NCBI GenBank assembly: GCA_963773405.1
Contig: CAVZAQ010000013.1
Coordinates: 19,758 to 83,757, forward strand
Reading direction: 5' to 3'
DNA: 64,000 nt
Source of the DNA: an uncultured Chloroflexia bacterium
Lineage (GTDB): Bacteria; Chloroflexota; Limnocylindria; QHBO01
The notes under the pieces were generated by a model, which was given only the letters and a program-made list of their open reading frames with translations, was not told where the DNA came from and searched no databases. Position 1 is the first letter of the stretch; every line of letters begins with the position of its first letter. The translations under genes and the position numbers were made by a program. Positions 8,807 to 20,026 of the stretch are shown here, one piece after another.

Positions 8807-9047
8807 ATGACCCGCGGCTTGAAGATTTGCTGCGGCGGGACATGCCTTCCGCTTCCGTGCCAATGACCGCAGCGAACCACCGCACGTCCACGTCGAGGGC
8901 AACGGCGGACGGGCAAAGTTCTGGCTGCCCGATGCAGGACTGGTCCGGAGCGAGGGATACAATCGTCGGCAGTTGGCGGCTATCCAGATCATCGTGGCGG
9001 AGAACGCGGAACGCTGGCTGAGGCAATGGCATGACTTCTTCAACTAG
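8807..9047 (+). pseudogene. DUF4160 family protein (second copy), N-terminus disrupted by a 1-nt frameshift near 8824
   Basis: ATG at 8807 gives MTRGLK in one frame. The DUF4160 body (FAAAGHAFRFRANDRSEPPHVHVEGNGGRAKFWLPDAG...WHDFFN) is in the -1 frame and preceded by an in-frame TGA at 8820. Ends at 9047 with the same 17-nt overlap to its DUF2442 partner as copy 1. Confidence 0.5.
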
Positions 9048-9339
9048 ACCCCTGCTGACCCGTCCCGCTCTCGCGGCCGATGTCCGCGTCACCGATGCAC
9101 AGCTCACCGTGACCCTGACCGATGGGCGCGAGATCAGCATCCCGCTGGCCGAGTTCCCCCGGCTGGTGGCCGCCACCCCCGCACAGCGCGCGAACTGGGA
9201 GATCGTCGATCACCGCACGGCCATCACCTGGCCCGACATCGACGAGGAGATCGGCATGGCTGGTCTGCTCGGTGTCTCCGAAACGGCCGTCGAGGAGGCC
9301 GCCGGCTTCACCATCCTCAACCGCGAACCTGCGCGGTAG
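9031..9339 (+). CDS. DUF2442 family protein (second copy)
   Basis: MTSSTRPLLTRPALAADVRVTDAQLTVTLTDGREISIPLAEFPRLVAATPAQRANWEIVDHRTAITWPDIDEEIGMAGLLG: ~50% identical to the protein at 5314..5610. Confidence 0.65.
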   Translation: MTSSTRPLLTRPALAADVRVTDAQLTVTLTDGREISIPLAEFPRLVAATPAQRANWEIVDHRTAITWPDIDEEIGMAGLLGVSETAVEEAAGFTILNREPAR

Positions 9340-9976: not shown

Positions 9977-10411
9977 TCACACCGCTCCAGATGGGCAGAA
10001 CGGGCTCGGTGGGAATGCATCTTCATCCACCTCCGCGATCTTCCCGGCCGCATCGATGACGAACCACCGTGTAACGGGCTGGATGCCGCCGCTGGGCGGT
10101 GGTGCGGACGGATCCACGGCCGGCGGAGTGGGCACCGCGAAGGTCAGGTCGAGCCTGTCGGTGGGCGTGGTAATGCTGACGGTCGACATCCCCCGACTGA
10201 ACCCTCGCGCGTACTCCCTGCACGGAGGAATCCCCTCAGTCCCCGATCGACCGGCATAGGTATCCGACGAATCCCACCGGAACGAGCCGGTCACACTGCC
10301 CACGTTGGCAATTCGGATCAGGCCGTCTGCCGGCGGTGGCCCGCAGCCCGCAACGAGAACAACCACGATGGCCGCAGCAATCCACCCGTGACGCCGACTC
10401 TCGATGCGCAT
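9977..10411 (-). CDS. Hypothetical lipoprotein
   Basis: From MRIESRRHGWIAAAIVVVLVAGCGPPP: signal peptide + lipobox. Confidence 0.4.
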   Translation of the reverse strand: MRIESRRHGWIAAAIVVVLVAGCGPPPADGLIRIANVGSVTGSFRWDSSDTYAGRSGTEGIPPCREYARGFSRGMSTVSITTPTDRLDLTFAVPTPPAVDPSAPPPSGGIQPVTRWFVIDAAGKIAEVDEDAFPPSPFCPSGAV

Positions 10412-10506
10412 TCCCAGACCCCCAGCACATGCGCTTCCCGGCAAATCCTACTTGAACGACGCGCTACCCTACCGTCGAGCCTGCCCAGCAAGGGGGACCA
10501 AAGCCC

Positions 10507-10656
10507 ATGCCGGATACGACGGCCGGACGCGCTGTCGCCTTGCTTGTTGCCGCCCTCGTGCTGGCTGTCGTAGTCATAGTGGTGTCGAACACCGTGGCTA
10601 CCCCGCAGACATACGTCTTCGATACTGCTCCCGAGCAGATCCTGCATTCGCCATGA
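10507..10656 (+). CDS. Small single-TM peptide (49 aa) translationally coupled to the DUF2075 gene
   Basis: ATG at 10507 preceded by AGGGGGA 9 nt upstream. Encodes MPDTTAGRAVALLVAALVLAVVVIVVSNTVATPQTYVFDTAPEQILHSP. Its TGA overlaps the ATG of the next gene (gccATGAag). Below the ORF-track length cutoff. Confidence 0.35.
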   Translation: MPDTTAGRAVALLVAALVLAVVVIVVSNTVATPQTYVFDTAPEQILHSP

Positions 10657-12527
10657 AGCTCTACGCGGGGACGACCGAGCAGTTCCTAAGGGACGCGATG
10701 ACGCACCGCATCGCGGAGAAGCTGGCGGTCGAGTACAAGGCAGAGCTCGGCCACAAGCCCGGCGCGGCCGAGTACAACTCCTGGCAGAACTCCCTGACCA
10801 GTCTGGGCTGGCTCGTCGACCATGCGGGACTCAAGGACCACGGCATCATCCTCGAGTACCAGCTGCCCCTGAGCTCCCTGCGCCTTGACGCCATGCTCAC
10901 CGGCCACCAGAACACCGCCACCGGCCCGCGCAACGCGGTGATCATCGAGCTCAAGCAGTGGACCGATGTCGCCGCCAGCAACGTCCCGGAATGCGTCGAG
11001 ACGTTCGTGGGTCACGCCACGCGACGCGTCCTCCACCCCAGCGTCCAGGTGGGCCGATACCAGCAGTACCTGCTCGACACCCACACGGCGTTCTACGAAG
11101 GCGGCATCGGCCTGGCGGCTGTCAGCTATGTCCACAACATGGACCACGCCACCGGTGAGCTCTTCGCCCCACGGCACGCGGACGCCCTGAAGGCCAATCC
11201 CCTCTTCACCGGCGACCTGGTCGACGACCTGGCGGACTACCTCCTCGAGCGCCTGGACGGGGGCGACGGCAACACCGTCCTGGCCGAGGTCCTCGCCTCC
11301 AAGTACCGCCCGTCCAAGAAGCTCCTCGACCACACCTACCAGATGGTCAAGGGCCAGACCGAGTTCGTGCTCCTGGACGAGCAGCTGGTGGTCTTCAACT
11401 CCGTCCTGGCCGCCGCCCGCGAGAGCTTCTCCGAGACGAAGAAGGGCGTCATGCTCGTCAAGGGCGGACCGGGCACCGGCAAGAGCGTCATCGCCCTCAA
11501 TCTGGTGGGCGAGCTGGCGAAGCAGGGCTTCAACACCCAGCATGCGACGGGATCCAAGGCGTTCACGGAGAACGTCCGTCGCGTCGTTGGCCCGCGAGCC
11601 TCCACCCAGTTCAAGTACTTCAACTCGTACGGGCCGGCGGAGACCAACGACATCGACGTCCTGATCTGCGACGAGGCGCATCGGCTCCGCGAGACAAGCG
11701 CCAGCCGCTACACGCCAAAGGCGAAGAGGACGGACCTGCCGCAGGTGGACGAGCTGATCCGGGCCGCGAAGGTAAGCGTCTTCTTCATCGACGACCTGCA
11801 GGGCGTGCGCCCCAACGAGGTCGGGACCACCGACCTCATCGCGGAAGCGGCCCTGCGCAATGGCGCGGCCATTGACGTCTTCGAGCTGGAGACCCAGTTC
11901 CGCTGCGCCGGCTCGGAGGCGTTCGTCAGCTGGGTCGACAACACCCTTGGCCTGGCGGAGACCGCCAACCCGGTCTGGGAGGGCAACGAGAACTTCGACT
12001 TCCGCATCGTCGACTCCGTGGAGCAGCTGGACGCGCTGATCCGCACCCGGGCCGCCGAGGGCCATTCCGCGCGCCTGACCGCCGGCTTCTGCTGGCGCTG
12101 GAGCAACCCAGAGCCCGATGGCACCCTCGTCAACGACGTGAAGATCGGCTCCTGGGAGATGCCGTGGAATGCCCGGCCCGATGCCGGCCGCCTCGCCCCC
12201 GACGTTCCCCCGTCCATCTACTGGGCATCGAATCCCAACGGGATCAACCAAGTGGGATGCATCTACACGGCCCAAGGATTCGAGTTCGACTACGTCGGAG
12301 TGATCGTTGGTCCAGACCTGCGGTGGGACGGGACTGCCGAGTGGGTCGGCGATCAAAGCGAGTCCCGGGATCCAGGTCTGCGCGGCAGCGGAGAGCGCCT
12401 TACCCATCTGATCCAGAGCGCCTACAGGGTCTTGCTAACCCGAGGGATGAAAGGCTGCTACGTCTACGTCATTGACGACGAGACGCACCGCCATCTGGAA
12501 TCAAGAGTGTCGGGCGGCCGGACATAG
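10653..12527 (+). CDS. DUF2075 family Schlafen-like P-loop ATPase/helicase-like protein
   Basis: Starts at internal Met MKLYAGTTEQFLRDAM... of ORF 10404..12527. N-terminal nuclease-like/Schlafen-like region (IIELKQW), Walker A (LVKGGPGTGKSVIALNL), Walker B (VLICDEAH), and C-terminal CIYTAQGFEFDYVGVIVG...RVLLTRGMKGCYVY typical of DUF2075 (PF09848). Confidence 0.75.
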   Translation: MKLYAGTTEQFLRDAMTHRIAEKLAVEYKAELGHKPGAAEYNSWQNSLTSLGWLVDHAGLKDHGIILEYQLPLSSLRLDAMLTGHQNTATGPRNAVIIELKQWTDVAASNVPECVETFVGHATRRVLHPSVQVGRYQQYLLDTHTAFYEGGIGLAAVSYVHNMDHATGELFAPRHADALKANPLFTGDLVDDLADYLLERLDGGDGNTVLAEVLASKYRPSKKLLDHTYQMVKGQTEFVLLDEQLVVFNSVLAAARESFSETKKGVMLVKGGPGTGKSVIALNLVGELAKQGFNTQHATGSKAFTENVRRVVGPRASTQFKYFNSYGPAETNDIDVLICDEAHRLRETSASRYTPKAKRTDLPQVDELIRAAKVSVFFIDDLQGVRPNEVGTTDLIAEAALRNGAAIDVFELETQFRCAGSEAFVSWVDNTLGLAETANPVWEGNENFDFRIVDSVEQLDALIRTRAAEGHSARLTAGFCWRWSNPEPDGTLVNDVKIGSWEMPWNARPDAGRLAPDVPPSIYWASNPNGINQVGCIYTAQGFEFDYVGVIVGPDLRWDGTAEWVGDQSESRDPGLRGSGERLTHLIQSAYRVLLTRGMKGCYVYVIDDETHRHLESRVSGGRT

Positions 12528-12540
12528 AGGGAGGAGCACA

Positions 12541-13176
12541 GTGACGACACAGGCTGGCTACTGTCCGAATTGCGGCAAGCAGCGCGAGGGGGCGATGCGT
12601 TTCTGCTCGTCCTGCGGCCATGACTTCTGGGCTGCGGCCGCCGGCGCTGCGTCGGCGCCGATGGCCACTTCGACGGCACCACCTCCGGCACCGGTTGGAG
12701 CTCCTCCGCAAGCGAGCGAGGCTTCCGGCGTACCGCTTCCCACGATCCTCGTCCTCGGTGGCGGCGTCCTGCTCGTCGTGGGTTCGTTTCTCCCGTGGGC
12801 AACTGCGTCGACCGTGTTTGGCTCCCTCTCCCGGAGCGGCGTAGATGGCGGCGACGGATGGATCACGACCATCATCGGCGCGCTCATCCTGCTCTTCGGC
12901 GCAATGACGCTGAGACAGGCGAGCCGCGGCCTGAACCTGCTTATCGCCGTCGGCGCTGCGATCGCATTCCTGATCTTCGTCTTCGACCTCGTCGACGTAA
13001 ACAACCGGATCGCCAGCATCGAGGCCGAAGGGCAGGGCCTGGCGCTCGGCACGGTGGGCTTCGGGCTCTGGCTCGTCGGCCTCGGCGCAATCGTCGCGTT
13101 CTTCGCGAGCTTCTTCCGGCGCAGGTGGCACCAGCAGCCAGCGACACGCAATGTCGGAACCACCGAAGTTCGATGA
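12541..13176 (+). CDS. Zinc-ribbon domain membrane protein (4 predicted TM helices)
   Basis: GTG start with GGAGGAG RBS. CPNCGKQ...CSSCGH zinc ribbon, Ala/Pro-rich linker, then 4 hydrophobic helices. Begins 14 nt after the DUF2075 stop. Confidence 0.6.
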   Translation: MTTQAGYCPNCGKQREGAMRFCSSCGHDFWAAAAGAASAPMATSTAPPPAPVGAPPQASEASGVPLPTILVLGGGVLLVVGSFLPWATASTVFGSLSRSGVDGGDGWITTIIGALILLFGAMTLRQASRGLNLLIAVGAAIAFLIFVFDLVDVNNRIASIEAEGQGLALGTVGFGLWLVGLGAIVAFFASFFRRRWHQQPATRNVGTTEVR

Positions 13177-13179
13177 AGG

Positions 13180-13692
13180 GTGCCGGCTGGCGGTGGCATC
13201 CCGCCCGAGCGCCACTGGGCCAGTGATCCCGCGGGCATCAACCAGGCGGGTTGCATCTACACCGCCCAGGGCTTCGAGCTCGATTACCTGGGCGTCATCA
13301 TCGGCCGCGACCTGCGCTGGGATCCGTCATCCGAGGAGTGGATCGGCGATCCTTCCGAGTCCTTCGACTCGATCGTCAAGCGCTCCGGCGACCGGTTCAC
13401 CGACCTCGTCAAGCGCACCTACCGCGTCCTCCTCACCCGCGGCATGAAGGGCTGCTACGTGTACGGGGCGGACCCGGGGACGCGGGAACACATCACCTTG
13501 CGGACGACTGGCGGAACGGACGCCGATGAGGCTCCGGGAGAGTCAGACCCTGTGTACGAAATCCCAAGCTGCGATCGGGTCGGGGGATGCACCGAGTGGT
13601 GGGCGTCTATGAGAGCGACGCCTGATCAGGAGACCTACCGGGACAGGTGCCTCAGCGGATGGTCAGCGGGTCGGTTCCAGCGTTCTTGTTGA
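13180..13692 (+). pseudogene. C-terminal fragment (~105 aa) of a second DUF2075 gene (gene remnant)
   Basis: ERHWASDPAGINQAGCIYTAQGFELDYLGVIIGRDLRWDPSSEEWIGDP...RVLLTRGMKGCYVYGADP aligns at ~65% identity to residues ~590-700 of the full DUF2075 protein, but lacks the N-terminal 80% of the gene. Its third-position GC is higher than in the full-length copy. Confidence 0.55.
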
Positions 13693-13921
13693 GGTAGCGC
13701 ATCCGCACTCGGGCGGCTTGGATCACGCCACGCAGCAGCGAGCCGGCGACGACGACCCCCACAGCCAGCGTCGCGATCCCCCTCACCCAGTCAATCGCCA
13801 GCCAAGTGTTCAGCACGGCGGCAACGAACAGGCCGGCGACCAAGCTCACCAAAACGCCGAGGGCCGCGCCCAGAATGACGGGGACGGGTCCTGGCCCACC
13901 AGATCGATCTTCTCGGGTCAT
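13652..13921 (-). CDS. Small hypothetical membrane protein
   Basis: 89-aa ORF with two hydrophobic segments; no family recognised; could be spurious. Confidence 0.25.
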   Translation of the reverse strand: MTREDRSGGPGPVPVILGAALGVLVSLVAGLFVAAVLNTWLAIDWVRGIATLAVGVVVAGSLLRGVIQAARVRMRYLNKNAGTDPLTIR

Positions 13922-14039
13922 GATTGTCTCCTGATCGAGCGCCCGCCCTCGTTGGTGCGGAGCAGAGACGGCCTCCAGTCACCGGAGCCTGTACGGCCCC
14001 GATTGGCCTGTCAAGGGCCGAAGGACGCCATCAACGTGT

Positions 14040-14930
14040 GCCGCTGCTCCTGCGGCGCTGGAGGCCAGTACGTTCGCTCTACAGCCGCCCGAGCATGTAG
14101 CCGAACGAGGCCACCTCGAGCCACGCTTTCGCGCTCGTCGCGGTTCCCTCGAAACAACGGGACAGGCGCCGCCAGCGTCCGAGCTCGGCGAAGGCTCGCT
14201 CGACGCGCCAGAGCGGCGCGATCGGGGTGAAGTTGCCCTTGCCCTTGCGGGCCGGCGGTCTGGGAATGCCAGGCTGGGTCTTGGGCGGGACCTTGATGTC
14301 GAGCGCCAGATGGCGATGGTCGGCCAGGTTCCGCAGCCCGCGGTAGCCGCGATCGGCGACGATCGCCTGAACGCGCGGGAGGTCGTTGAGGTTGGCGCGA
14401 AGGAGGTCGCGGCCGGCCGACACGTCGTGTGGTCGCGCCGAATCGACTCTCGCCGCGATCGGCAGGCCGAGGATCTCGACCAGGATGCTGCGCTTGGCGC
14501 CGATCGTGCGCCCGCCGCGCCCGCCGTTGTCGTGGAACGTCGGTCCGGCGCGTCCACCCTTCACCGTCTGGGCGTCGATCATCACCATCGACGGGACGGC
14601 ATCGCGGTTGTGCGCAACGCGGATCCGGCGCGCCAGGCGGGTCGTCGCCAAGGCCCAGACGCCATTGGCTCGCCATCGCCGCCATTGCTGCCAGGCGGCA
14701 CCCCACGGGCCGTATCGCTCCGGCAGGTAGCGCCACTGGCAGCCCGTCCTGGCCAGGAAGAGCATCGCCTCGACCATCTGGCGTCGGGGAACTTGGGCTG
14801 GCGCGCCTCGTCGGCCAAACGGATCGAACAGGTCAGCGACGAGCGCCCATTGCGGATCGGTCAGCTCGTAGATCGCGGCCATCGGAAGCAGCCTGGCATC
14901 ACGGCGCGACAGGTTCTATGGCACGAAAGA
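14040..14930. mobile_element. IS5-family insertion sequence (boundaries approximate; inverted repeats not resolved)
   Basis: Contains a single intact DDE transposase gene; element ends could not be defined by eye. Confidence 0.45.
14079..14882 (-). CDS. IS5-family (DDE_Tnp_1 with N-terminal DUF4096-like) transposase
   Basis: MAAIYELTDPQWALVADLF...GCQWRYLPERYGPW...MIDAQTVKGGRAG...VADRGY...: canonical IS5/IS4-group transposase motifs. Confidence 0.8.
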   Translation of the reverse strand: MAAIYELTDPQWALVADLFDPFGRRGAPAQVPRRQMVEAMLFLARTGCQWRYLPERYGPWGAAWQQWRRWRANGVWALATTRLARRIRVAHNRDAVPSMVMIDAQTVKGGRAGPTFHDNGGRGGRTIGAKRSILVEILGLPIAARVDSARPHDVSAGRDLLRANLNDLPRVQAIVADRGYRGLRNLADHRHLALDIKVPPKTQPGIPRPPARKGKGNFTPIAPLWRVERAFAELGRWRRLSRCFEGTATSAKAWLEVASFGYMLGRL

Positions 14931-15013
14931 CCCGGTCTGATCGGGAACTTTCATACACAGGGTCTCAGATCCCGCGGATGCTCTTCCTAATTCTCCGCTC
15001 GGCTGCGAAGCAG

Positions 15014-15328
15014 TTAACGACCGCTTTCGCTCCTAATCAGCGCCCCGGCCTTCGCCGAAGCGGGGGCCACGGTAGGCTTCTTAGCCTTCTTGCGCTCTGC
15101 ATAGATGTTCTGCGAAACCGTCGCGGCGGTTGTCTGCAGCAACGCGGCGATCTCTTGGTTGGTGAACCCAATCAGCGCCAGCCTTAGACACTTGGCCGCC
15201 TGCGTCGTCCCTTCAGGCATTCCGTCCAACATCCCGAACGCGGCAATCTTGTCCTGCATGGTTGCTCCGCCGCGCCGCGGAGTCACTTCTTCGAGTTCGT
15301 CCTGTCCGTTCCGCTCTCGGTTCGGCAT
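15014..15328 (-). CDS. Small GerE/LuxR-type (sigma-70 region-4-like) HTH protein, paralog A
   Basis: AAKCLRLALIGFTNQEIAALLQTTAATVSQNIY matches the GerE-type HTH consensus. AGGAG RBS 9 nt upstream of the ATG; starts 16 nt after the TIR-like gene stop. Confidence 0.55.
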   Translation of the reverse strand: MPNRERNGQDELEEVTPRRGGATMQDKIAAFGMLDGMPEGTTQAAKCLRLALIGFTNQEIAALLQTTAATVSQNIYAERKKAKKPTVAPASAKAGALIRSESGR

Positions 15329-15343
15329 CAGTCGCGCTCCTAC

Positions 15344-16183
15344 CTAGAGGTTGAAATCGCCAAGAGTCAGCCAATCCGTTCCGTCGGTGTCAACGGCGCA
15401 CCCGGCATTCGACAGCTTGGTCGCCAGCTCGCGGCGGCTTGCGGCGAGATTCGTGAGACGCGTGATGTGCTTCCCGCCGACATCGGAAAAGGGCTTAACA
15501 GCTCCGATCTGCACTAGGACAGTCGAATCCGCGTTACGGCCCACGGCCATGCCTGCTTCGAAGAGCACATTGGGTCGTGCTTGGCGAACCGTCGCGTGTT
15601 CATAAGCCTCATCGCTCGGCTTCCAGAATTCTCTTGCAAGGACAACATCGTCGTCTGGCGTGAGAAGCACAACGACAGCGGCAGCTTCACGAAACGCGGC
15701 GGTAAGCACGTCGTCCAAGGACGGGGTGCCTTTGCCGGTTGCCGCCAGAAGCTTGTTCCACTCCAGTGGTTCGAGGCCGAGTGTTCGCAGGAAGATCGCA
15801 AGTTCGTCGCGCATCTTCGTGTTGCGGCCATGCACGATGAAGACTTTCTTGCCTTTGGTCGTCCGAGGCCCGACTGTCTTCGCCGCTTTCGAGGCTTTGC
15901 GTCTCCGCGGCACCGTTAGCGATTGCGCTTCTGCTCGCTGCGGCGATGTCCCAGTGGAGGAGCGCCCTGCGCCTTGGCGCACGGCCCGCAACTGCGCAAG
16001 GTCATCTTCGCTGTTGACATGGTTGCGAATGCTGATTCCGCTTTCGGCAGCAAGGGCGAGGAGAGCGAGCCGGCGGGGCAGAAGGGTGTCGAGCTCCTTC
16101 TCGCGAATCAGCCGCTGCAGCTGGCGCTCGCTGATATCACGCTTCGTCTGGACTTGCGCACGAAGCGCCTTCTCGTCTGCCAC
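15344..16183 (-). CDS. TIR-like nucleotide-binding domain protein (COG4271 / Cap12-PycTIR-type) with uncharacterised N-terminal region
   Basis: GTG start. C-terminal ~150 aa: KKVFIVHGRNTKMRDELAIFLRTLGLEPLEWNK...AAVVVLLTPDD...RQARPNVLFEAGMAVG, matching the FIVHG...LGLEP...LFE(A/L)G pattern of TIR-like effector domains, including the putative catalytic Glu. N-terminal ~110 aa is helical/charged with a low-complexity linker. Confidence 0.6.
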   Translation of the reverse strand: MADEKALRAQVQTKRDISERQLQRLIREKELDTLLPRRLALLALAAESGISIRNHVNSEDDLAQLRAVRQGAGRSSTGTSPQRAEAQSLTVPRRRKASKAAKTVGPRTTKGKKVFIVHGRNTKMRDELAIFLRTLGLEPLEWNKLLAATGKGTPSLDDVLTAAFREAAAVVVLLTPDDDVVLAREFWKPSDEAYEHATVRQARPNVLFEAGMAVGRNADSTVLVQIGAVKPFSDVGGKHITRLTNLAASRRELATKLSNAGCAVDTDGTDWLTLGDFNL

Positions 16184-16195
16184 CGTTGGCTAGCC

Positions 16196-16414
16196 TCACC
16201 CCTCGGGGCCGGCTCGCTTCGCCGCCTGCGACAGGAATCCGCGAACGGAGCCCTCCGAGGATCCCGTTAGCGCTGAGATCTCCTTGTTTGAGAATCCGGC
16301 GCTGTGCAACAACTTCGCCGCGTCACCCTTCGAAAAGTCCTTGATAGCCGACAGTGCCAGAACGTTCGCGACCTTCCTCAACTGAACGGCGACATCCGCT
16401 TCGTCGGCGGCCAT
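16196..16414 (-). CDS. Small GerE/LuxR-type HTH protein, paralog B
   Basis: Starts at internal Met MAADEADVAVQL... with AAGGAG RBS 8 nt upstream. DAAKLLHSAGFSNKEISALTGSSEGSVRGFL HTH. Confidence 0.55.
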   Translation of the reverse strand: MAADEADVAVQLRKVANVLALSAIKDFSKGDAAKLLHSAGFSNKEISALTGSSEGSVRGFLSQAAKRAGPEG

Positions 16415-16416
16415 CG

Positions 16417-16683
16417 CTACTTCTCCTTCCCGTTTGCGGGAGACGCCTTTTGGGCGGACGCCTTGACGATGTGGCGCAACGAATCGTCCGTGGTCCCAAG
16501 AAGGGCGGCAGCGTCTGCACGGGTAAGCCCCAGATTGTTCATCAGGAAGCGCGCCTGCTCGGCGAGTCCCTTCTCCCGCAATCCCGCGTGGTGCAGACAC
16601 AGGAACGCTTGGGACTTGGCCGCTACAAGGGACCAGTCAGTGACGGTAAGAGGATCGCGGGGCACTTCGCGTTCTCCAGGCAC
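16417..16683 (-). CDS. Small GerE/LuxR-type HTH protein, paralog C
   Basis: FLMNNLGLTRADAAALLGTTDDSLRHIV HTH. Its stop is 2 nt upstream of the paralog B start. Confidence 0.5.
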   Translation of the reverse strand: MPGEREVPRDPLTVTDWSLVAAKSQAFLCLHHAGLREKGLAEQARFLMNNLGLTRADAAALLGTTDDSLRHIVKASAQKASPANGKEK

Positions 16684-16743
16684 GGGATTTGGCCGGACAC
16701 AAATGCTATCAAATGCTTGTGCCTCTAGGCGGCACTATTCCCT

Positions 16744-16762
16744 TTGACTCAAGTCAATTGAC
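16744..16762. promoter_or_regulatory. AT-rich promoter/operator candidate containing perfect palindrome GTCAATTGAC and TTGAC/GTCAA inverted repeats, upstream of the HTH-HTH-TIR-HTH operon
   Basis: ttgactcaaGTCAATTGACtgtctcaag lies in a locally AT-rich gap 60-90 nt upstream of the first operon gene. TTGACT -35-like hexamers occur on both strands. Confidence 0.35.
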
Positions 16763-17002
16763 TGTCTCAAGGGACGCCTCCCCCGCCTCCGCCCAGGGCG
16801 TGGGGCGGGTGCCAGATCGGTCCTAATCGCTGCGCCAGTAACGCCGAAGGTCCGATGCGCCAGGCCACGGGCGCGCGCCCTGTTCAGCTCGAGTTCTGCC
16901 AGATCGACTGCAGCACCACCACGCCACAATCCAAGATCAGCACCCCGCCCACTTGACGAGCGCCACAGCTTGGATAAACTGGCTACTGTGAGCGCGCACG
17001 TT

Positions 17003-17620
17003 ATGAATGCCAGCATCGAGAGCGGCCCAAACCGCCCGCAGTCGCCCCTCACGGCCAGTCCGACCTCCAGACCTCGATCAATCGCGCACCGCCTACGCGC
17101 CAGCTGGCCCGGTCTGCGACCGGACGCCAATCTCACCCGTGAGCGCGCCGCTGGGTTGCTCTTCGCGGGTATCTCCAGCCTGGTGGTCGCCGGCCTGGCT
17201 GCCGCCCTCGGCCACCCCGATCGTGTCGTCTCCGATCTCGTCTTACGCGGGCAGTCGCTCGATCTGACGGTCGCCGGGCTTCCCGCGGCCTTGGTGGCGG
17301 CCTGGTTGACCGCTCCCTATGCCGCCAGGCGGAGCGTGAGCCTCCGGCGCGGGGCAGTGACCGTGGCGCTCGTCGTGGTGGTGTTGACAGACCTCATCGC
17401 CGCGGTCTATTTCACCGCTCCGATGCTGTGGAGTCCACCCTTCGATCCCGGCGCATTCGTTACCTTCCCGGTGATACTTGGCTCCGCCGCCCTGTGGGGC
17501 GCGCTGCTCTACGGTCTACCTGGCTTTGTCCTGGCGCTGTCTGCCGGCCTGCCCGGCTTGCTACTGATCCGCCGCCTCCCACTCCTTTCGCCTACGGCTC
17601 CAGACGGCTCCCGCGAATGA
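17003..17620 (+). CDS. Hypothetical polytopic membrane protein
   Basis: ORF 16970..17620 with 5-6 hydrophobic helices. ATGA overlap with the next gene. Confidence 0.4.
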   Translation: MNASIESGPNRPQSPLTASPTSRPRSIAHRLRASWPGLRPDANLTRERAAGLLFAGISSLVVAGLAAALGHPDRVVSDLVLRGQSLDLTVAGLPAALVAAWLTAPYAARRSVSLRRGAVTVALVVVVLTDLIAAVYFTAPMLWSPPFDPGAFVTFPVILGSAALWGALLYGLPGFVLALSAGLPGLLLIRRLPLLSPTAPDGSRE

Positions 17621-18084
17621 CAGGGCTGGAGCACCTAACCTCGACGGAGGCGGATCGCCGCGCCGCTGTTGGGCGAGCGGCCAAGCGCTACGCGTTCGTT
17701 AGCGCGATAAGCGTCGTGCTGGTGAGTCTCTGGGTGGCGATGGCCTGGGGAGGACCGGCCGCCATCGGCTTCTACCTGGGGCCGATCGCCATCGGCTACC
17801 TGGCAATCACCGCGCCGCCGTTTGCAGCCACGGTCGCTGCCTGGCAGTTATCGCCCTGGGTCCACCGCACTGTCGCGCGAACCTTGGTCGCGGTCCTGGC
17901 CGTGACCGCCTGGGCCACCGTGTTGTTGCTGGTCAGCGCCGTCACCGGCTTCCTGTCACCCGATCCACCGTTGACGATCGCCCGTGCGGTCTTCGGTATC
18001 GCCTTCCTGGCACTGCTGACCTTCGTGCCCGTCAGTCTGAGCCTGCCGTGGGGCTGGCGTCGAGAACCGCGCGCTGCCCAATGA
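17617..18084 (+). CDS. Hypothetical polytopic membrane protein
   Basis: From internal Met MTGLEHLTSTEADRR...; 4 hydrophobic helices; translationally coupled to the preceding gene. Confidence 0.45.
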   Translation: MTGLEHLTSTEADRRAAVGRAAKRYAFVSAISVVLVSLWVAMAWGGPAAIGFYLGPIAIGYLAITAPPFAATVAAWQLSPWVHRTVARTLVAVLAVTAWATVLLLVSAVTGFLSPDPPLTIARAVFGIAFLALLTFVPVSLSLPWGWRREPRAAQ

Positions 18085-18306
18085 TCCGGACCCGAGCAGC
18101 TGGCGTCGTCTTTTTTCTCTGTGGCGTCGTGCCCGGAGGCCGCGTCTCCATACCGCCACACCGCGCGACAGGGGAGCCAGCATTAGCTCAAGGTCCCAAC
18201 CCTAGGGGTCGAGGACAAAGCCGCACGCACCACAGTGGTTCACTAGCCACGTCGGTGGCGGAGGGCCAGATGGCCCTTCCCCTTCTTGCAGGCGGCGGTA
18301 GCATAC

Positions 18307-18321
18307 CTAGACGTACTAGGT
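18307..18321. promoter_or_regulatory. Inverted repeat CCTAG-acgta-CTAGG just upstream of padR start; candidate PadR operator
   Basis: cctagacgtactagg read directly, 9 nt upstream of the ATG at 18330. Confidence 0.3.
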
Positions 18322-18329
18322 ACGACGAA

Positions 18330-18650
18330 ATGCCGCCAAGACTCGACCGCGGTGACTACGCCCTCCTCCTGCTCGGCCTCCTCGGCGAGCGCGAGATGTA
18401 CGGGTATGAGCTGGTCGCCGCGCTGCGTGATCGGTCCAAGGCGGTGATCGACCTGCCCGAGGGGACCGTCTATCCGGCGCTGCGCCGCCTGGAGCGCGAA
18501 GGATTGGTGGCCGGGCGCTGGGTCGAGGTTGCCGGCGGTCCACGGCGCCGCTACTACAGCCTCACCATCGCCGGCGAGCGAGCGTTGGCCGATGGCCGCA
18601 AGGCGTGGCGCCGCTTCGCGGCCGCTGCCGATGGAGTGCTGGGCCGGTGA
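18330..18650 (+). CDS. PadR family transcriptional regulator
   Basis: MPPRLDRGDYALLLLGLLGEREMYGYELVAALRD...GTVYPALRRLEREGLVAGRW: PadR winged-helix signature. Confidence 0.75.
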   Translation: MPPRLDRGDYALLLLGLLGEREMYGYELVAALRDRSKAVIDLPEGTVYPALRRLEREGLVAGRWVEVAGGPRRRYYSLTIAGERALADGRKAWRRFAAAADGVLGR

Positions 18651-20026
18651 GCGAGCCGGGGGGCCCGGGCCCGATGGCGCCGGAATCGGCTGCTCGGCTG
18701 CACGCGCACGTCGCGTCGATCCTGGATGTCTCGGCGGTTCCACCGGAGCTCCGCGAGGACATCGCCGAGGAGCTGTACGGGCATCTCATCGAGCGGGTGC
18801 AGGCGTACCGGGATGCAGGCATGGACGAGCCGGCCTCAGTGGAGCGCGCGGTCCGCGAGCTGGGCGGAGTGGAGCAGCTCGGACGCGACTTCCGGCGGGC
18901 GTACCACTCACGGCTGTGGGCGAGCACGGTGGGGATCCTGCTGCCCGCGGTGGCGCCCCGCGAGGTCCGGCCGCCGTCCGTGGGCTGGCTGCGGTTCACG
19001 CTCGCGGTGGTTGTCGTTCTGACCGGCATCGGTCTGCTGCTCATGCTGCCGCAGGCCACGCCAGTCCGGGCAGTCGGGACACTCGCCGTGGACGGGCTGG
19101 GCCTGTGGGCCATCGCGCTGGCCTTCCTGGCGCTGGCGCGCGGGCAGCGCTGGGCGCTGTGGTACGCGCTGTCCGTCACCGTGGAACTGCTCCTGTGGGG
19201 CATCGGCTCGATGCTGGCCACTCCCGCCGGTTCAGTCACCATTCCGCTGGGCGCCATCCTGGCCGCCGTGGTTCTCTTCCAGGCGATGGCGGACCGATAC
19301 CGGCTGCAGGCGTTCGTCGCCGGCTCGCGCCCCCTCGGTCGGGCCATGGTGGCGGCCCTGGCGCTCGCGCTGCTGCTGCCAGTCACCGTGCCGCCGGCCC
19401 TCGCCGCCCTCCCCGATCCCACCCAGGCCGCTTCCTCCGACCTGCTGCTGACGGCCTCCATGCGCTGTGACCGTGGGGACGTCGCCTTCGACGGCATCGG
19501 CACGGTCGCGAATACCTCGCGGGCAACCTTGGTAGCCGACATGACCTGGCGGCGCTCAGACCTGCTGCCCGAGGGCCTGGCGGGCCTCTTCCGCCCGGCC
19601 GACTACGGGGACAGCGCCGGCTTCCGCCTGGTGAACGATGCCCCCGATGCTCCGCTGCCGGCCTGGATGCTCGCCTCCAACGACGTGCCGGTGGTGGATG
19701 TCGCCACAGGCCAGCCGGCGGGCTGGTTCGGATCCACGGCGCCCAGCGTGGCGCTGCTGCCGGACACCATCGGGAGCTTCACGATCGGGATCGACCTGTC
19801 AGCCATCCGGGCCGGCCATACCCTGCGCGCGACGTGGGTGCTGACCCCCGTGGCAGACGCCGGGGCACCCTGGCCGATGATCGAGGTCGCCTACGCCCAC
19901 CTCGATCACTTCCTGCTGGAGGGAACAGTGAGCTGTGGCCAGACGGTCACGGCCCACGAGGTTCCCGTTCCTTCCCCGGCGTCGCCACAGACGCTCACCG
20001 ACCCGTTCGGTATCGGCTACCCGTAA
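18647..20026 (+). CDS. PadR-associated membrane protein with N-terminal helical (DUF1700/HAAS-like) sensor region and large extracytoplasmic domain
   Basis: GTG start overlapping the padR stop. N-terminal ELREDIAEELYGHLIERVQAYRDAGMDEPASVERAVRELG resembles the helical module commonly partnered with PadR. 6+ TM helices; C-terminal ~180 aa soluble domain. Confidence 0.5.
   Translation: MSEPGGPGPMAPESAARLHAHVASILDVSAVPPELREDIAEELYGHLIERVQAYRDAGMDEPASVERAVRELGGVEQLGRDFRRAYHSRLWASTVGILLPAVAPREVRPPSVGWLRFTLAVVVVLTGIGLLLMLPQATPVRAVGTLAVDGLGLWAIALAFLALARGQRWALWYALSVTVELLLWGIGSMLATPAGSVTIPLGAILAAVVLFQAMADRYRLQAFVAGSRPLGRAMVAALALALLLPVTVPPALAALPDPTQAASSDLLLTASMRCDRGDVAFDGIGTVANTSRATLVADMTWRRSDLLPEGLAGLFRPADYGDSAGFRLVNDAPDAPLPAWMLASNDVPVVDVATGQPAGWFGSTAPSVALLPDTIGSFTIGIDLSAIRAGHTLRATWVLTPVADAGAPWPMIEVAYAHLDHFLLEGTVSCGQTVTAHEVPVPSPASPQTLTDPFGIGYP

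Follow-up and report, generated by a model that had tools for sequence, protein, structure and literature searches.

Introduction

Cyclic oligonucleotide-based antiphage signalling systems (CBASS) and pyrimidine cyclase systems for antiphage resistance (Pycsar) include effectors, Cap12 (TIR-STING) and PycTIR, that share a TIR-like domain of the PF10137 family. Type II toxin-antitoxin (TA) systems of the Xre-RES kind pair a helix-turn-helix (HTH) antitoxin with a toxin that degrades nicotinamide adenine dinucleotide (NAD+). Here we analyze an operon that invites comparison with both. It lies in a stretch of 64,000 nucleotides from an uncultured Chloroflexia bacterium (assembly GCA_963773405.1, contig CAVZAQ010000013.1, positions 19,758 to 83,757; hereafter the window) and encodes a TIR-like effector of 279 amino acids (aa), again with a PF10137 domain, together with three small HTH-type proteins termed HTH-A, HTH-B, and HTH-C. 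An earlier note on this DNA had singled the operon out as a candidate defense module.

The PDC systems of PADLOC are untested candidates, put forward because homologs of them turned up inside BREX, DISARM, or type I restriction-modification (RM) loci, an approach of guilt-by-embedding (Payne et al., preprint 10.1101/2024.01.29.577857). In Swarozyc, a DUF4062 TIR-like NADase bears an HTH/winged-fold auxiliary domain that recognizes the phage portal for activation (preprint 10.64898/2026.05.01.722283). A large survey of bacterial TIR systems had PF10137 among its search Pfams, set effector-type and stand-alone TIRs aside, and nowhere mentions HTH. In the literature on PDC-S35, PF10137, COG4271, and TIR-like proteins with HTH, we found no description of the module analyzed here. 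The earlier view that a TIR protein with triplicated HTH genes matches no named system stands to that extent, with the amendments that the third HTH gene is lineage-specific and that the TIR half resembles PDC-S35. Judged from the sequence comparisons below, the module is widespread, conserved, and apparently undescribed.

Results

HTH genes accompany the N-terminal domain of the effector

Four open reading frames (ORFs) stand in close succession on the minus strand at 15014-16683 and encode, in the order of transcription, HTH-C, HTH-B, the effector, and HTH-A. The intergenic gaps measure 2, 12, and 15 nt, and ribosome-binding sites (RBSs) of the GGAG type precede HTH-B, HTH-A, and an alternative start of HTH-C, in agreement with the four-gene operon with short gaps and RBSs that had been described before. 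The effector begins with a 72-aa N-terminal domain (the N-domain), which is separate from its TIR-like half.

Among 185,579 genomes, one for each GTDB species, 464 stretches matched, and ORF calling and iterative hidden Markov model (HMM) searches were applied to the best 80 loci. HTH-family genes lie directly upstream on the same strand in 47 of the 48 loci that encode the N-domain; the remaining locus, L021, has a 5′-truncated effector gene. Where PF10137 is joined to other N-termini, an HTH-family gene occurs in none of the 32 loci, anywhere in the fetched sequence. Counting downstream genes as well, 36 of the N-domain loci carry two HTH copies, six carry one (often a hybrid-looking protein with features of both HTH-C and HTH-B), two carry three, and three carry four. 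The same HTH-effector arrangement recurs in all 11 further loci from metagenomes and IMG/VR. A metagenome scan with the HTH-C alignment added at least two loci, L087 with the order C-B-effector and L088, a 1.3-kb contig with two adjacent HTH-family ORFs. The neighborhood check proposed in the earlier note, for small HTH genes beside homologs of the effector, thus gave co-occurrence almost without exception.

Clustering of all flanking ORFs in 49 loci revealed no other conserved family, and the remaining clusters are antisense shadows of the module genes. No nucleotide cyclase is found within ~8 kb of the operon or conserved near the effector in the 49 related loci, and SLOG, SAVED, and Macro genes are missing among the operon's neighbors; the earlier statement that no cyclase or ThsA-like partner adjoins the effector holds for the window and for its relatives. 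In relatives, consecutive module genes overlap or are spaced by at most 17 nt, and the short gaps and overlaps in both the window and its relatives suggest co-translation. By their distribution, the HTH genes track the 72-aa N-domain and not the TIR-like domain itself, and the conserved core, as read from these loci, consists of the effector and one or two HTH genes 5′ of it.

Domain structure of the effector

The effector gene (15344-16183, minus strand) encodes a protein of four parts. Residues 113-243 (15455-15847) match PF10137 with 89.3 bits (cut-off 24.7, E = 2.3e-25) over model positions 1-117 of 119 and include the motifs KKVFIVHGRN, FLRTLGLEP, VVLLTPDD, and NVLFEAGMA, all of which the earlier note had listed. 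An AlphaFold2 (AF2) model based on 26 homologs, with a mean predicted local distance difference test (pLDDT) score of 84.8, shows a four-helix N-domain (residues 2-72), a disordered linker, a TIR-type α/β domain, and a short C-terminal extension. The TIR (flavodoxin-like) fold of the C-terminal half is confirmed: the best structural matches are TIR domains, and lower Z values were obtained for nucleoside 2-deoxyribosyltransferases and response-regulator receivers. Profile score and fold match both bear out the original assignment to the TIR-like family. Glu209 (codon 15557-15559) in the NVLFEAG motif is invariant in an alignment of 26 sequences and falls in the stretch covered by alignments to the NCBIfam Cap12 model as well as the TIR effector models of PADLOC; it would be the putative catalytic residue of the predicted NADase.

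The N-domain (residues 1-72, 15968-16183) is conserved in the 26-sequence alignment and forms four helices with pLDDT values of 86-97 in the AF2 model; its conserved pattern is LPRRLA.LALAAE.GI.I....DL.QLR. It matches no Pfam family. A relationship to the HTH family was considered and rejected (hhalign probability <1%). The Lys/Arg-rich linker that follows (residues 73-112, 15848-15967) is disordered, with pLDDT below 50 at residues 73-107, and across the family it stays basic while its length varies. At the other end, alignment and model define a C-terminal extension (residues 244-279 plus the stop codon, 15344-15454) of one helix and a strand, which is conserved across the family as ..R.EL.TKL.NAGC.VD..G.DW...GDF. 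The effector has more than 2,000 relatives in the database; the top 120 are nearly all ~270-330 aa long, align with coverage above 90%, and are publicly annotated only as 'nucleotide-binding protein'. A sequence search of the PDB with the effector and HTH-C profiles yielded no relatives.

Two types of small HTH protein

HTH-C (16417-16683, minus strand) comprises 88 aa when read from the GTG start of our ORF call and 82 aa in the public gene call, which uses a second GTG at 16665. HTH-B (72 aa, 16196-16414) and HTH-A (104 aa, 15014-15328, 3′ of the effector) are encoded on the same strand, each with an RBS. HTH-B matches Sigma70_r4_2 at E = 3.2e-5 with 23.9 bits, just under the Pfam gathering score of 25.7, and HTH-A stays below the gathering scores of both Sigma70_r4_2 (18.6 versus 25.7) and GerE (17.6 versus 23.5). 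HTH-C matches neither family and gives weak Pfam HTH_31 and Xre-like matches. For the GerE/sigma-70-region-4 label given in the earlier note, all matches thus stay under the Pfam thresholds. The motif that all three had been said to share, G[FL][TS]N.EI[AS]AL, is present in HTH-A (GFTNQEIAAL) and HTH-B (GFSNKEISAL), whereas HTH-C reads GLTRADAAAL at this place.

Pairwise BLAST comparisons among the three proteins are weak (E ~1e-3), and hhalign aligns C-type with B-type proteins at 98.3% (E = 2e-14); their mutual paralogy, claimed from the outset, is secure at the profile level only. At that level, the C-type and B-type proteins are ancient paralogs. HTH-C carries the motif W..V.A...A.LCL...LGL.R.DAA.LLGT and HTH-B the motif ..VANVLAL....AGFSNKEISALTGSSEGSVRGFL. 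Alignments of orthologs give a C-type consensus of W..VIAR.LAYLCL...DK.L.EQA.FLE.LGL.R.D.A.LLGT...SL.EL. and a B-type consensus of I.NLLALL.VK....Q.EQI..L..AGF...EIA.LLG.T.N.V.V.L...R.K., the latter of which reads like sigma region 4.2. Most proteins of either type end in a basic tail. The AF2 model of HTH-C has four helices (pLDDT 79). In 41 loci, an ortholog of HTH-C is likewise the distal upstream gene, and orthologs of HTH-B lie directly 5′ of the effector in most loci.

HTH-A is a B-type paralog; its N-terminus is acidic and its tail basic. Genes of its type stand downstream of the effector in seven loci (the window, L002, L040, L064, L089, L090, and L095), in the architectures C-B-effector-A and C-effector-A. 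Orthologs in the same downstream position share 56-61% identity in L002, L040, and L064; further downstream orthologs occur in L089 and L090, and HMM matches were obtained in L089, L090, and L095. Since HTH-A is confined to this subset, the four-gene operon is a lineage variant of a broader HTH-HTH-effector module.

Copy number upstream of the effector varies as well. Three acidobacterial loci (L026, 3960-4976; L036, 3983-4975; L059, 4096-4878) have four tandem HTH genes 5′ of the effector, as if the C-B pair had been duplicated. A single HTH protein of ~100 aa precedes the effector in L010, L011, L012, and L025, and its N-terminal half looks like the C-type (IARSFAVIAL) and its C-terminal half like the B-type (GLSNSEIAKLLGTTANTVAVRL). 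On the strength of these sequence features, the hybrid protein may represent the unduplicated ancestral state.

Exchange of the effector domain

With the 72-aa N-domain as the query, phmmer had low power and produced 11 matches among 1.84 billion representatives; a word-index search with the same domain produced none. Among the 11, P0157 was discarded as a spurious repeat protein. P0159 (242 aa) is 45% identical over the N-domain and carries Hypoth_Ymh (PF09509, E = 2.5e-26) in the place of the TIR-like domain. This Ymh domain matches the PADLOC models for the HEPN protein associated with prokaryotic Argonaute (pAgo; Aga_HEPN, 7e-12) and for PD-Lambda-3_B (2e-11). Directly 5′ of P0159, locus L096 encodes a 73-aa B-type HTH protein (HTH HMM E = 1e-18) with 53% identity to HTH-B of the window. 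In the P0159/L096 architecture, the N-domain thus keeps its HTH partner although the catalytic domain is a different one, a pattern typical of conflict systems. A homolog of the candidate defense gene HEC-07 (685-2256, E = 4e-49) lies further 5′ on the same locus, ~2 kb from the effector. In place of the C-type HTH gene, L096:3311-4282 holds three different small genes (100-114 aa); two are paralogous and winged-HTH-like (..EIAAAAGVGAATVSRLWSQWAREGLV..), and from their sequences the three may form another variant of the control layer.

Distribution and mobility

The module occurs in at least 12 bacterial phyla and in one haloarchaeal metagenome-assembled genome (MAG). Its hosts include Gaiellaceae, Microbacterium, Acidobacteriota, Nitrospirota, NC10, Verrucomicrobiota, Planctomycetota, Gemmatimonadota, Myxococcota, Alpha- and Gammaproteobacteria, Ignavibacteriota, and the Halobacteriales MAG. 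The archaeal copy (L014, 1470-2884) is a complete C-B-effector module with 45% identity on a 5-kb contig and reflects either inter-domain transfer or a binning error. Several relatives have neighbors of the kinds found in defense islands or mobile elements: helicase-nuclease, DUF2357/PDDEXK_7, and ResIII genes in L089, a type I RM system at 6 kb in L090, an integrase with a run of TA pairs in L092, and a serine recombinase in L087. The association with defense islands is suggestive. No copy of the module was found in 50,697 phage records, and in IMG/VR five contigs matched, two of them with the N-domain. Among 72,556 plasmids, the HTH-B and N-domain queries matched nothing, and the matches to the effector query run through the TIR half only.

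Base composition sets the operon apart from its surroundings. Its GC content is 61.4%, compared with 69.4% for the whole window, and its GC at third codon positions (GC3) is 0.68-0.77, compared with 0.85-0.88 in the nearby genes for an IS5 transposase and an extracytoplasmic function (ECF) sigma factor, which marks it as compositionally foreign. The drop in GC noted earlier is real, though milder than claimed; the lowest value, 49%, is reached in a single 100-nt window that coincides with the promoter region. The many phyla, the variable contexts, the lower GC and GC3, and the insertion sequence (IS) that abuts the operon speak for horizontal mobility, and overall the module behaves as a small, self-sufficient cassette.

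Promoter region and flanking genes

Sequence reading and a palindrome scan located the overlapping perfect palindromes AGTCAATTGACT and TTGACTTGAGTCAA at 16744-16763 (minus strand), ~60-80 nt 5′ of HTH-C, and from their position they are a candidate operator or promoter element. An Rfam search of 12000-19000 found no match, and the window contains no tRNA genes.

A complete IS5-family element (13543-14965) lies 48 nt past the HTH-A stop codon, so the terminator of the operon may have been replaced. Its imperfect terminal inverted repeats, GACCCTGTGTA at the start and TACACAGGGTC at the end, lie at 13546 and 14962, a 3-bp TCA direct repeat is found on both sides, and the cargo consists of a 267-aa DUF4096+DDE_Tnp_1 transposase (14079-14882, minus strand) and an 89-aa ORF (13652-13921). 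Two helicase genes lie past this element, a C-terminal fragment of the DUF2075/SLFN-g3 kind and a full DUF2075 gene, and a Zn-ribbon membrane protein is encoded between them. The IS5 and DUF2075 genes are thus present as the earlier note had said, but they lie at lower coordinates, which for an operon on the minus strand means downstream and not upstream. The opposite flank encodes membrane proteins, PadR, and an ECF sigma/anti-sigma pair.

The stretch 10404-13545 holds the DUF2075/SLFN-g3 helicase gene, whose true start is likely near 10653 (MKLYAGTTEQF) and whose product gives weak PADLOC matches to PDC-S41, Nhi, and AbiO. The gene for the Zn-ribbon membrane protein (12472-13176) is followed by the C-terminal fragment of a second DUF2075 paralog (13180 to ~13500), which is 76% identical in DNA to the end of the first copy (13399-13465 versus 12402-12468); its reading frame continues into the IS element, and it looks like a rearranged remnant. 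A DUF2442 protein (9031-9339, E = 6e-18) belongs to a family often paired with DUF4160 as a putative TA module. At 370-1449, a protein with a LigD primase-polymerase domain (E = 3.6e-54) fits an actinobacterial-type gene of non-homologous end joining and has no tie to the operon.

Discussion

A proposed switch controlled by HTH proteins

With moderate confidence, and by analogy to described systems, we propose that the module is a toxin-antitoxin-like or abortive-infection switch in which the HTH proteins and the N-domain adaptor would control an NAD-degrading effector. The observations from which we start are the architecture of the operon, the TIR family and fold of the effector, the linkage of the HTH genes to the N-domain with no other conserved partner, and the swap of the effector domain in one relative. 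When active, the TIR-like domain would degrade NAD+, with Glu209 as the catalytic residue. The 72-aa N-domain would act as an adaptor through which co-translated HTH proteins, presumably by binding, hold the enzyme inactive; these inhibitors would be the C-type/B-type pair and, in the lineage of the window, the additional B-type protein HTH-A. Repression of the operon is probably a further role of these proteins. Were the HTH proteins lost, titrated, or displaced, the effector would be released, oligomerize, and deplete NAD+. Possible triggers are phage infection, if the module indeed has an anti-phage role, and loss of the element. The Xre-RES systems provide a precedent for such a pairing. 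We infer a defense role for the module; some of its relatives stand beside restriction or defense genes and others among housekeeping genes. On the points on which the earlier note had staked its proposal, the effector does have a TIR-like match, its homologs do occur with HTH neighbors and in part in defense contexts, and no cyclase had been overlooked.

Several observations weigh against this account. All HTH assignments score under the Pfam thresholds, and a Foldseek search of the PDB with the HTH-C model is non-significant, with PhyR sigma-like, SigD4/RsdA, and SigC region 4 as its top ranks (E = 0.6-2); the label of a sigma-4/HTH protein is for these reasons plausible, not established. 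Fisher's exact test for the association of HTH genes with the N-domain gives p = 1.5e-21, a value that overstates independence because the loci share ancestry, though many phyla are spanned. The copies in L093-L095 sit in plain metabolic neighborhoods and not in defense islands. A PADLOC and Pfam scan of the four nearest ORFs per locus (150 ORFs) gave scattered defense matches only (RM, reverse transcriptase, mad genes, and AriA), which are too noisy for us to claim an enrichment. A palindrome scan upstream of the distal HTH gene in 40 related loci found none that is shared, and the function of the palindromes at 16744-16763 is unproven for that reason. The exchange of the effector, finally, rests on one locus.

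It is possible, though rather unlikely, that the TIR-like protein is a single-protein defense gene, with the HTH proteins as a dedicated repressor pair that does not touch the enzyme and the N-domain as a phage sensor or oligomerization module. Many defense operons carry HTH regulators, the B-type proteins resemble sigma region 4.2, including its recognition helix, or a LuxR-type DNA-binding HTH, the palindromes are located 5′ of HTH-C, and the related PDC-S35 is a single-gene candidate in PADLOC. Against this reading, ordinary regulators tend to be promiscuous, and these genes track one N-domain (47/48 versus 0/32), follow it even where the effector domain changes, persist as two or three paralogs across phyla with reading frames that often overlap, and lack a conserved operator motif. 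Addiction by post-segregational killing, which would stabilize mobile elements and involve no anti-phage role, would fit the small upstream HTH genes and the toxin-type enzyme, the classic layout of a type II TA locus, as well as the integrase, TA pairs, and serine recombinase beside relatives and the IS5 element that abuts the window operon. We judge it improbable, given that HTH-B and the N-domain are missing from the 72,556 plasmids and the effector is matched there through its TIR half only, that phages gave no matches and few viral contigs were found, that several copies are chromosomal among housekeeping genes with no recognizable element nearby, and that both effector types, PF10137 TIR-like and Ymh/HEPN-like, are shared with known or candidate anti-phage systems.

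A function outside of conflict, such as a nucleotide-binding or nucleoside-transferase-like enzyme under local transcriptional control, would agree with the public annotation, with the lower-Z fold likeness to nucleoside 2-deoxyribosyltransferases and response-regulator receivers, and with the metabolic neighborhoods of some loci. The patchy distribution (464 stretches in 185,579 species genomes, across many phyla), the variable flanks, the atypical GC in the window, the swap to a HEPN-like domain, and the rank of TIR domains as the best structural matches make it very improbable. The chance is slimmer still that the TIR-like protein makes a nucleotide signal to which the small HTH proteins respond as effectors or regulators, as in Thoeris: proteins of 72-104 aa with four helices leave no room for a ligand-binding domain, the PF10137-type domain is used as an NAD-depleting effector, the same HTH/N-domain set occurs with a HEPN-like domain that is incapable of such a signal, and no known Thoeris effector is adjacent.

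A more speculative model, and a decidedly improbable one, draws on the top-ranked, non-significant fold matches of HTH-C, which are sigma-4 domains, some of them complexed with anti-sigma factors. The HTH proteins may be decoys of host sigma region 4, guarded by an anti-sigma-like N-domain, and the module a sensor of transcription hijacking. A phage takeover factor that, like T4 AsiA, seizes sigma region 4 would strip the adaptor of its decoys, and their displacement would unleash the attached suicide effector, be it a TIR-like NADase or a HEPN-like RNase.

Comparison with known systems

If the proposed switch is real, classic suicide effectors of soil and sediment lineages have an undescribed layer of control that is made up of several genes. 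With three genes in less than 1.7 kb, it would be a compact system in which to see how a TIR-type NADase is silenced and then triggered without a nucleotide second messenger.

One of the nearest systems is the candidate PDC-S35 of PADLOC: five of its models match residues 100-266 (best E = 1.8e-20), which take in the TIR-like domain and the greater part of the C-terminal extension. Only model positions 107-259 of 264, the C-terminal 60%, are matched, however, and the N-terminal ~100 positions differ. PDC-S35 is defined as a single gene, whereas the family of the window has HTH genes in 47 of 48 loci, so the model picks up, via the TIR half only, a multi-gene family with a different N-terminus.

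The Xre-RES TA systems resemble the module in having small HTH genes directly 5′ of, and co-transcribed with, an NAD-targeting toxin (a role that is predicted for the toxin of the window), and in being compact and mobile. They differ in that the toxin of the window is TIR-like and not RES, that its HTH proteins are sigma-region-4-like and not Xre, with two or three paralogs, and that the effector carries a dedicated N-terminal adaptor domain. PD-Lambda-3 and the pAgo-associated HEPN proteins (Ymh/PF09509) have the same HEPN-like domain as the sister architecture P0159/L096, which groups the module with systems whose suicide effectors are interchangeable; unlike PD-Lambda-3, the window has a TIR-like effector and lacks the PD-Lambda-3 partner protein. 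Swarozyc offers a precedent for HTH folds that act as sensors rather than DNA binders, but its NADase belongs to DUF4062 and not to PF10137, and its auxiliary domain is fused, not encoded by separate small genes. In contrast to Thoeris, which combines a ThsB TIR protein with a signal-activated effector, no effector of the ThsA type or with a signal-binding domain (SLOG, Macro) is adjacent, and the TIR of the window is of the effector type, PF10137.

CBASS and Pycsar, with which the effector shares its PF10137 domain, depend on a CD-NTase or PycC cyclase that has no counterpart in the window neighborhood or in the 49 related loci, and their effectors carry a STING, SAVED, or cyclic nucleotide (cNMP)-binding sensor domain, none of which was found on the effector of the window. 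The NCBIfam Cap12 equivalog model scores 15.4 on this protein against a cut-off of 450, so far below that the effector has a Cap12-type domain and is not a Cap12 protein. Compared with Cap12 and PycTIR, control here appears to come from the small HTH proteins and a novel N-domain.

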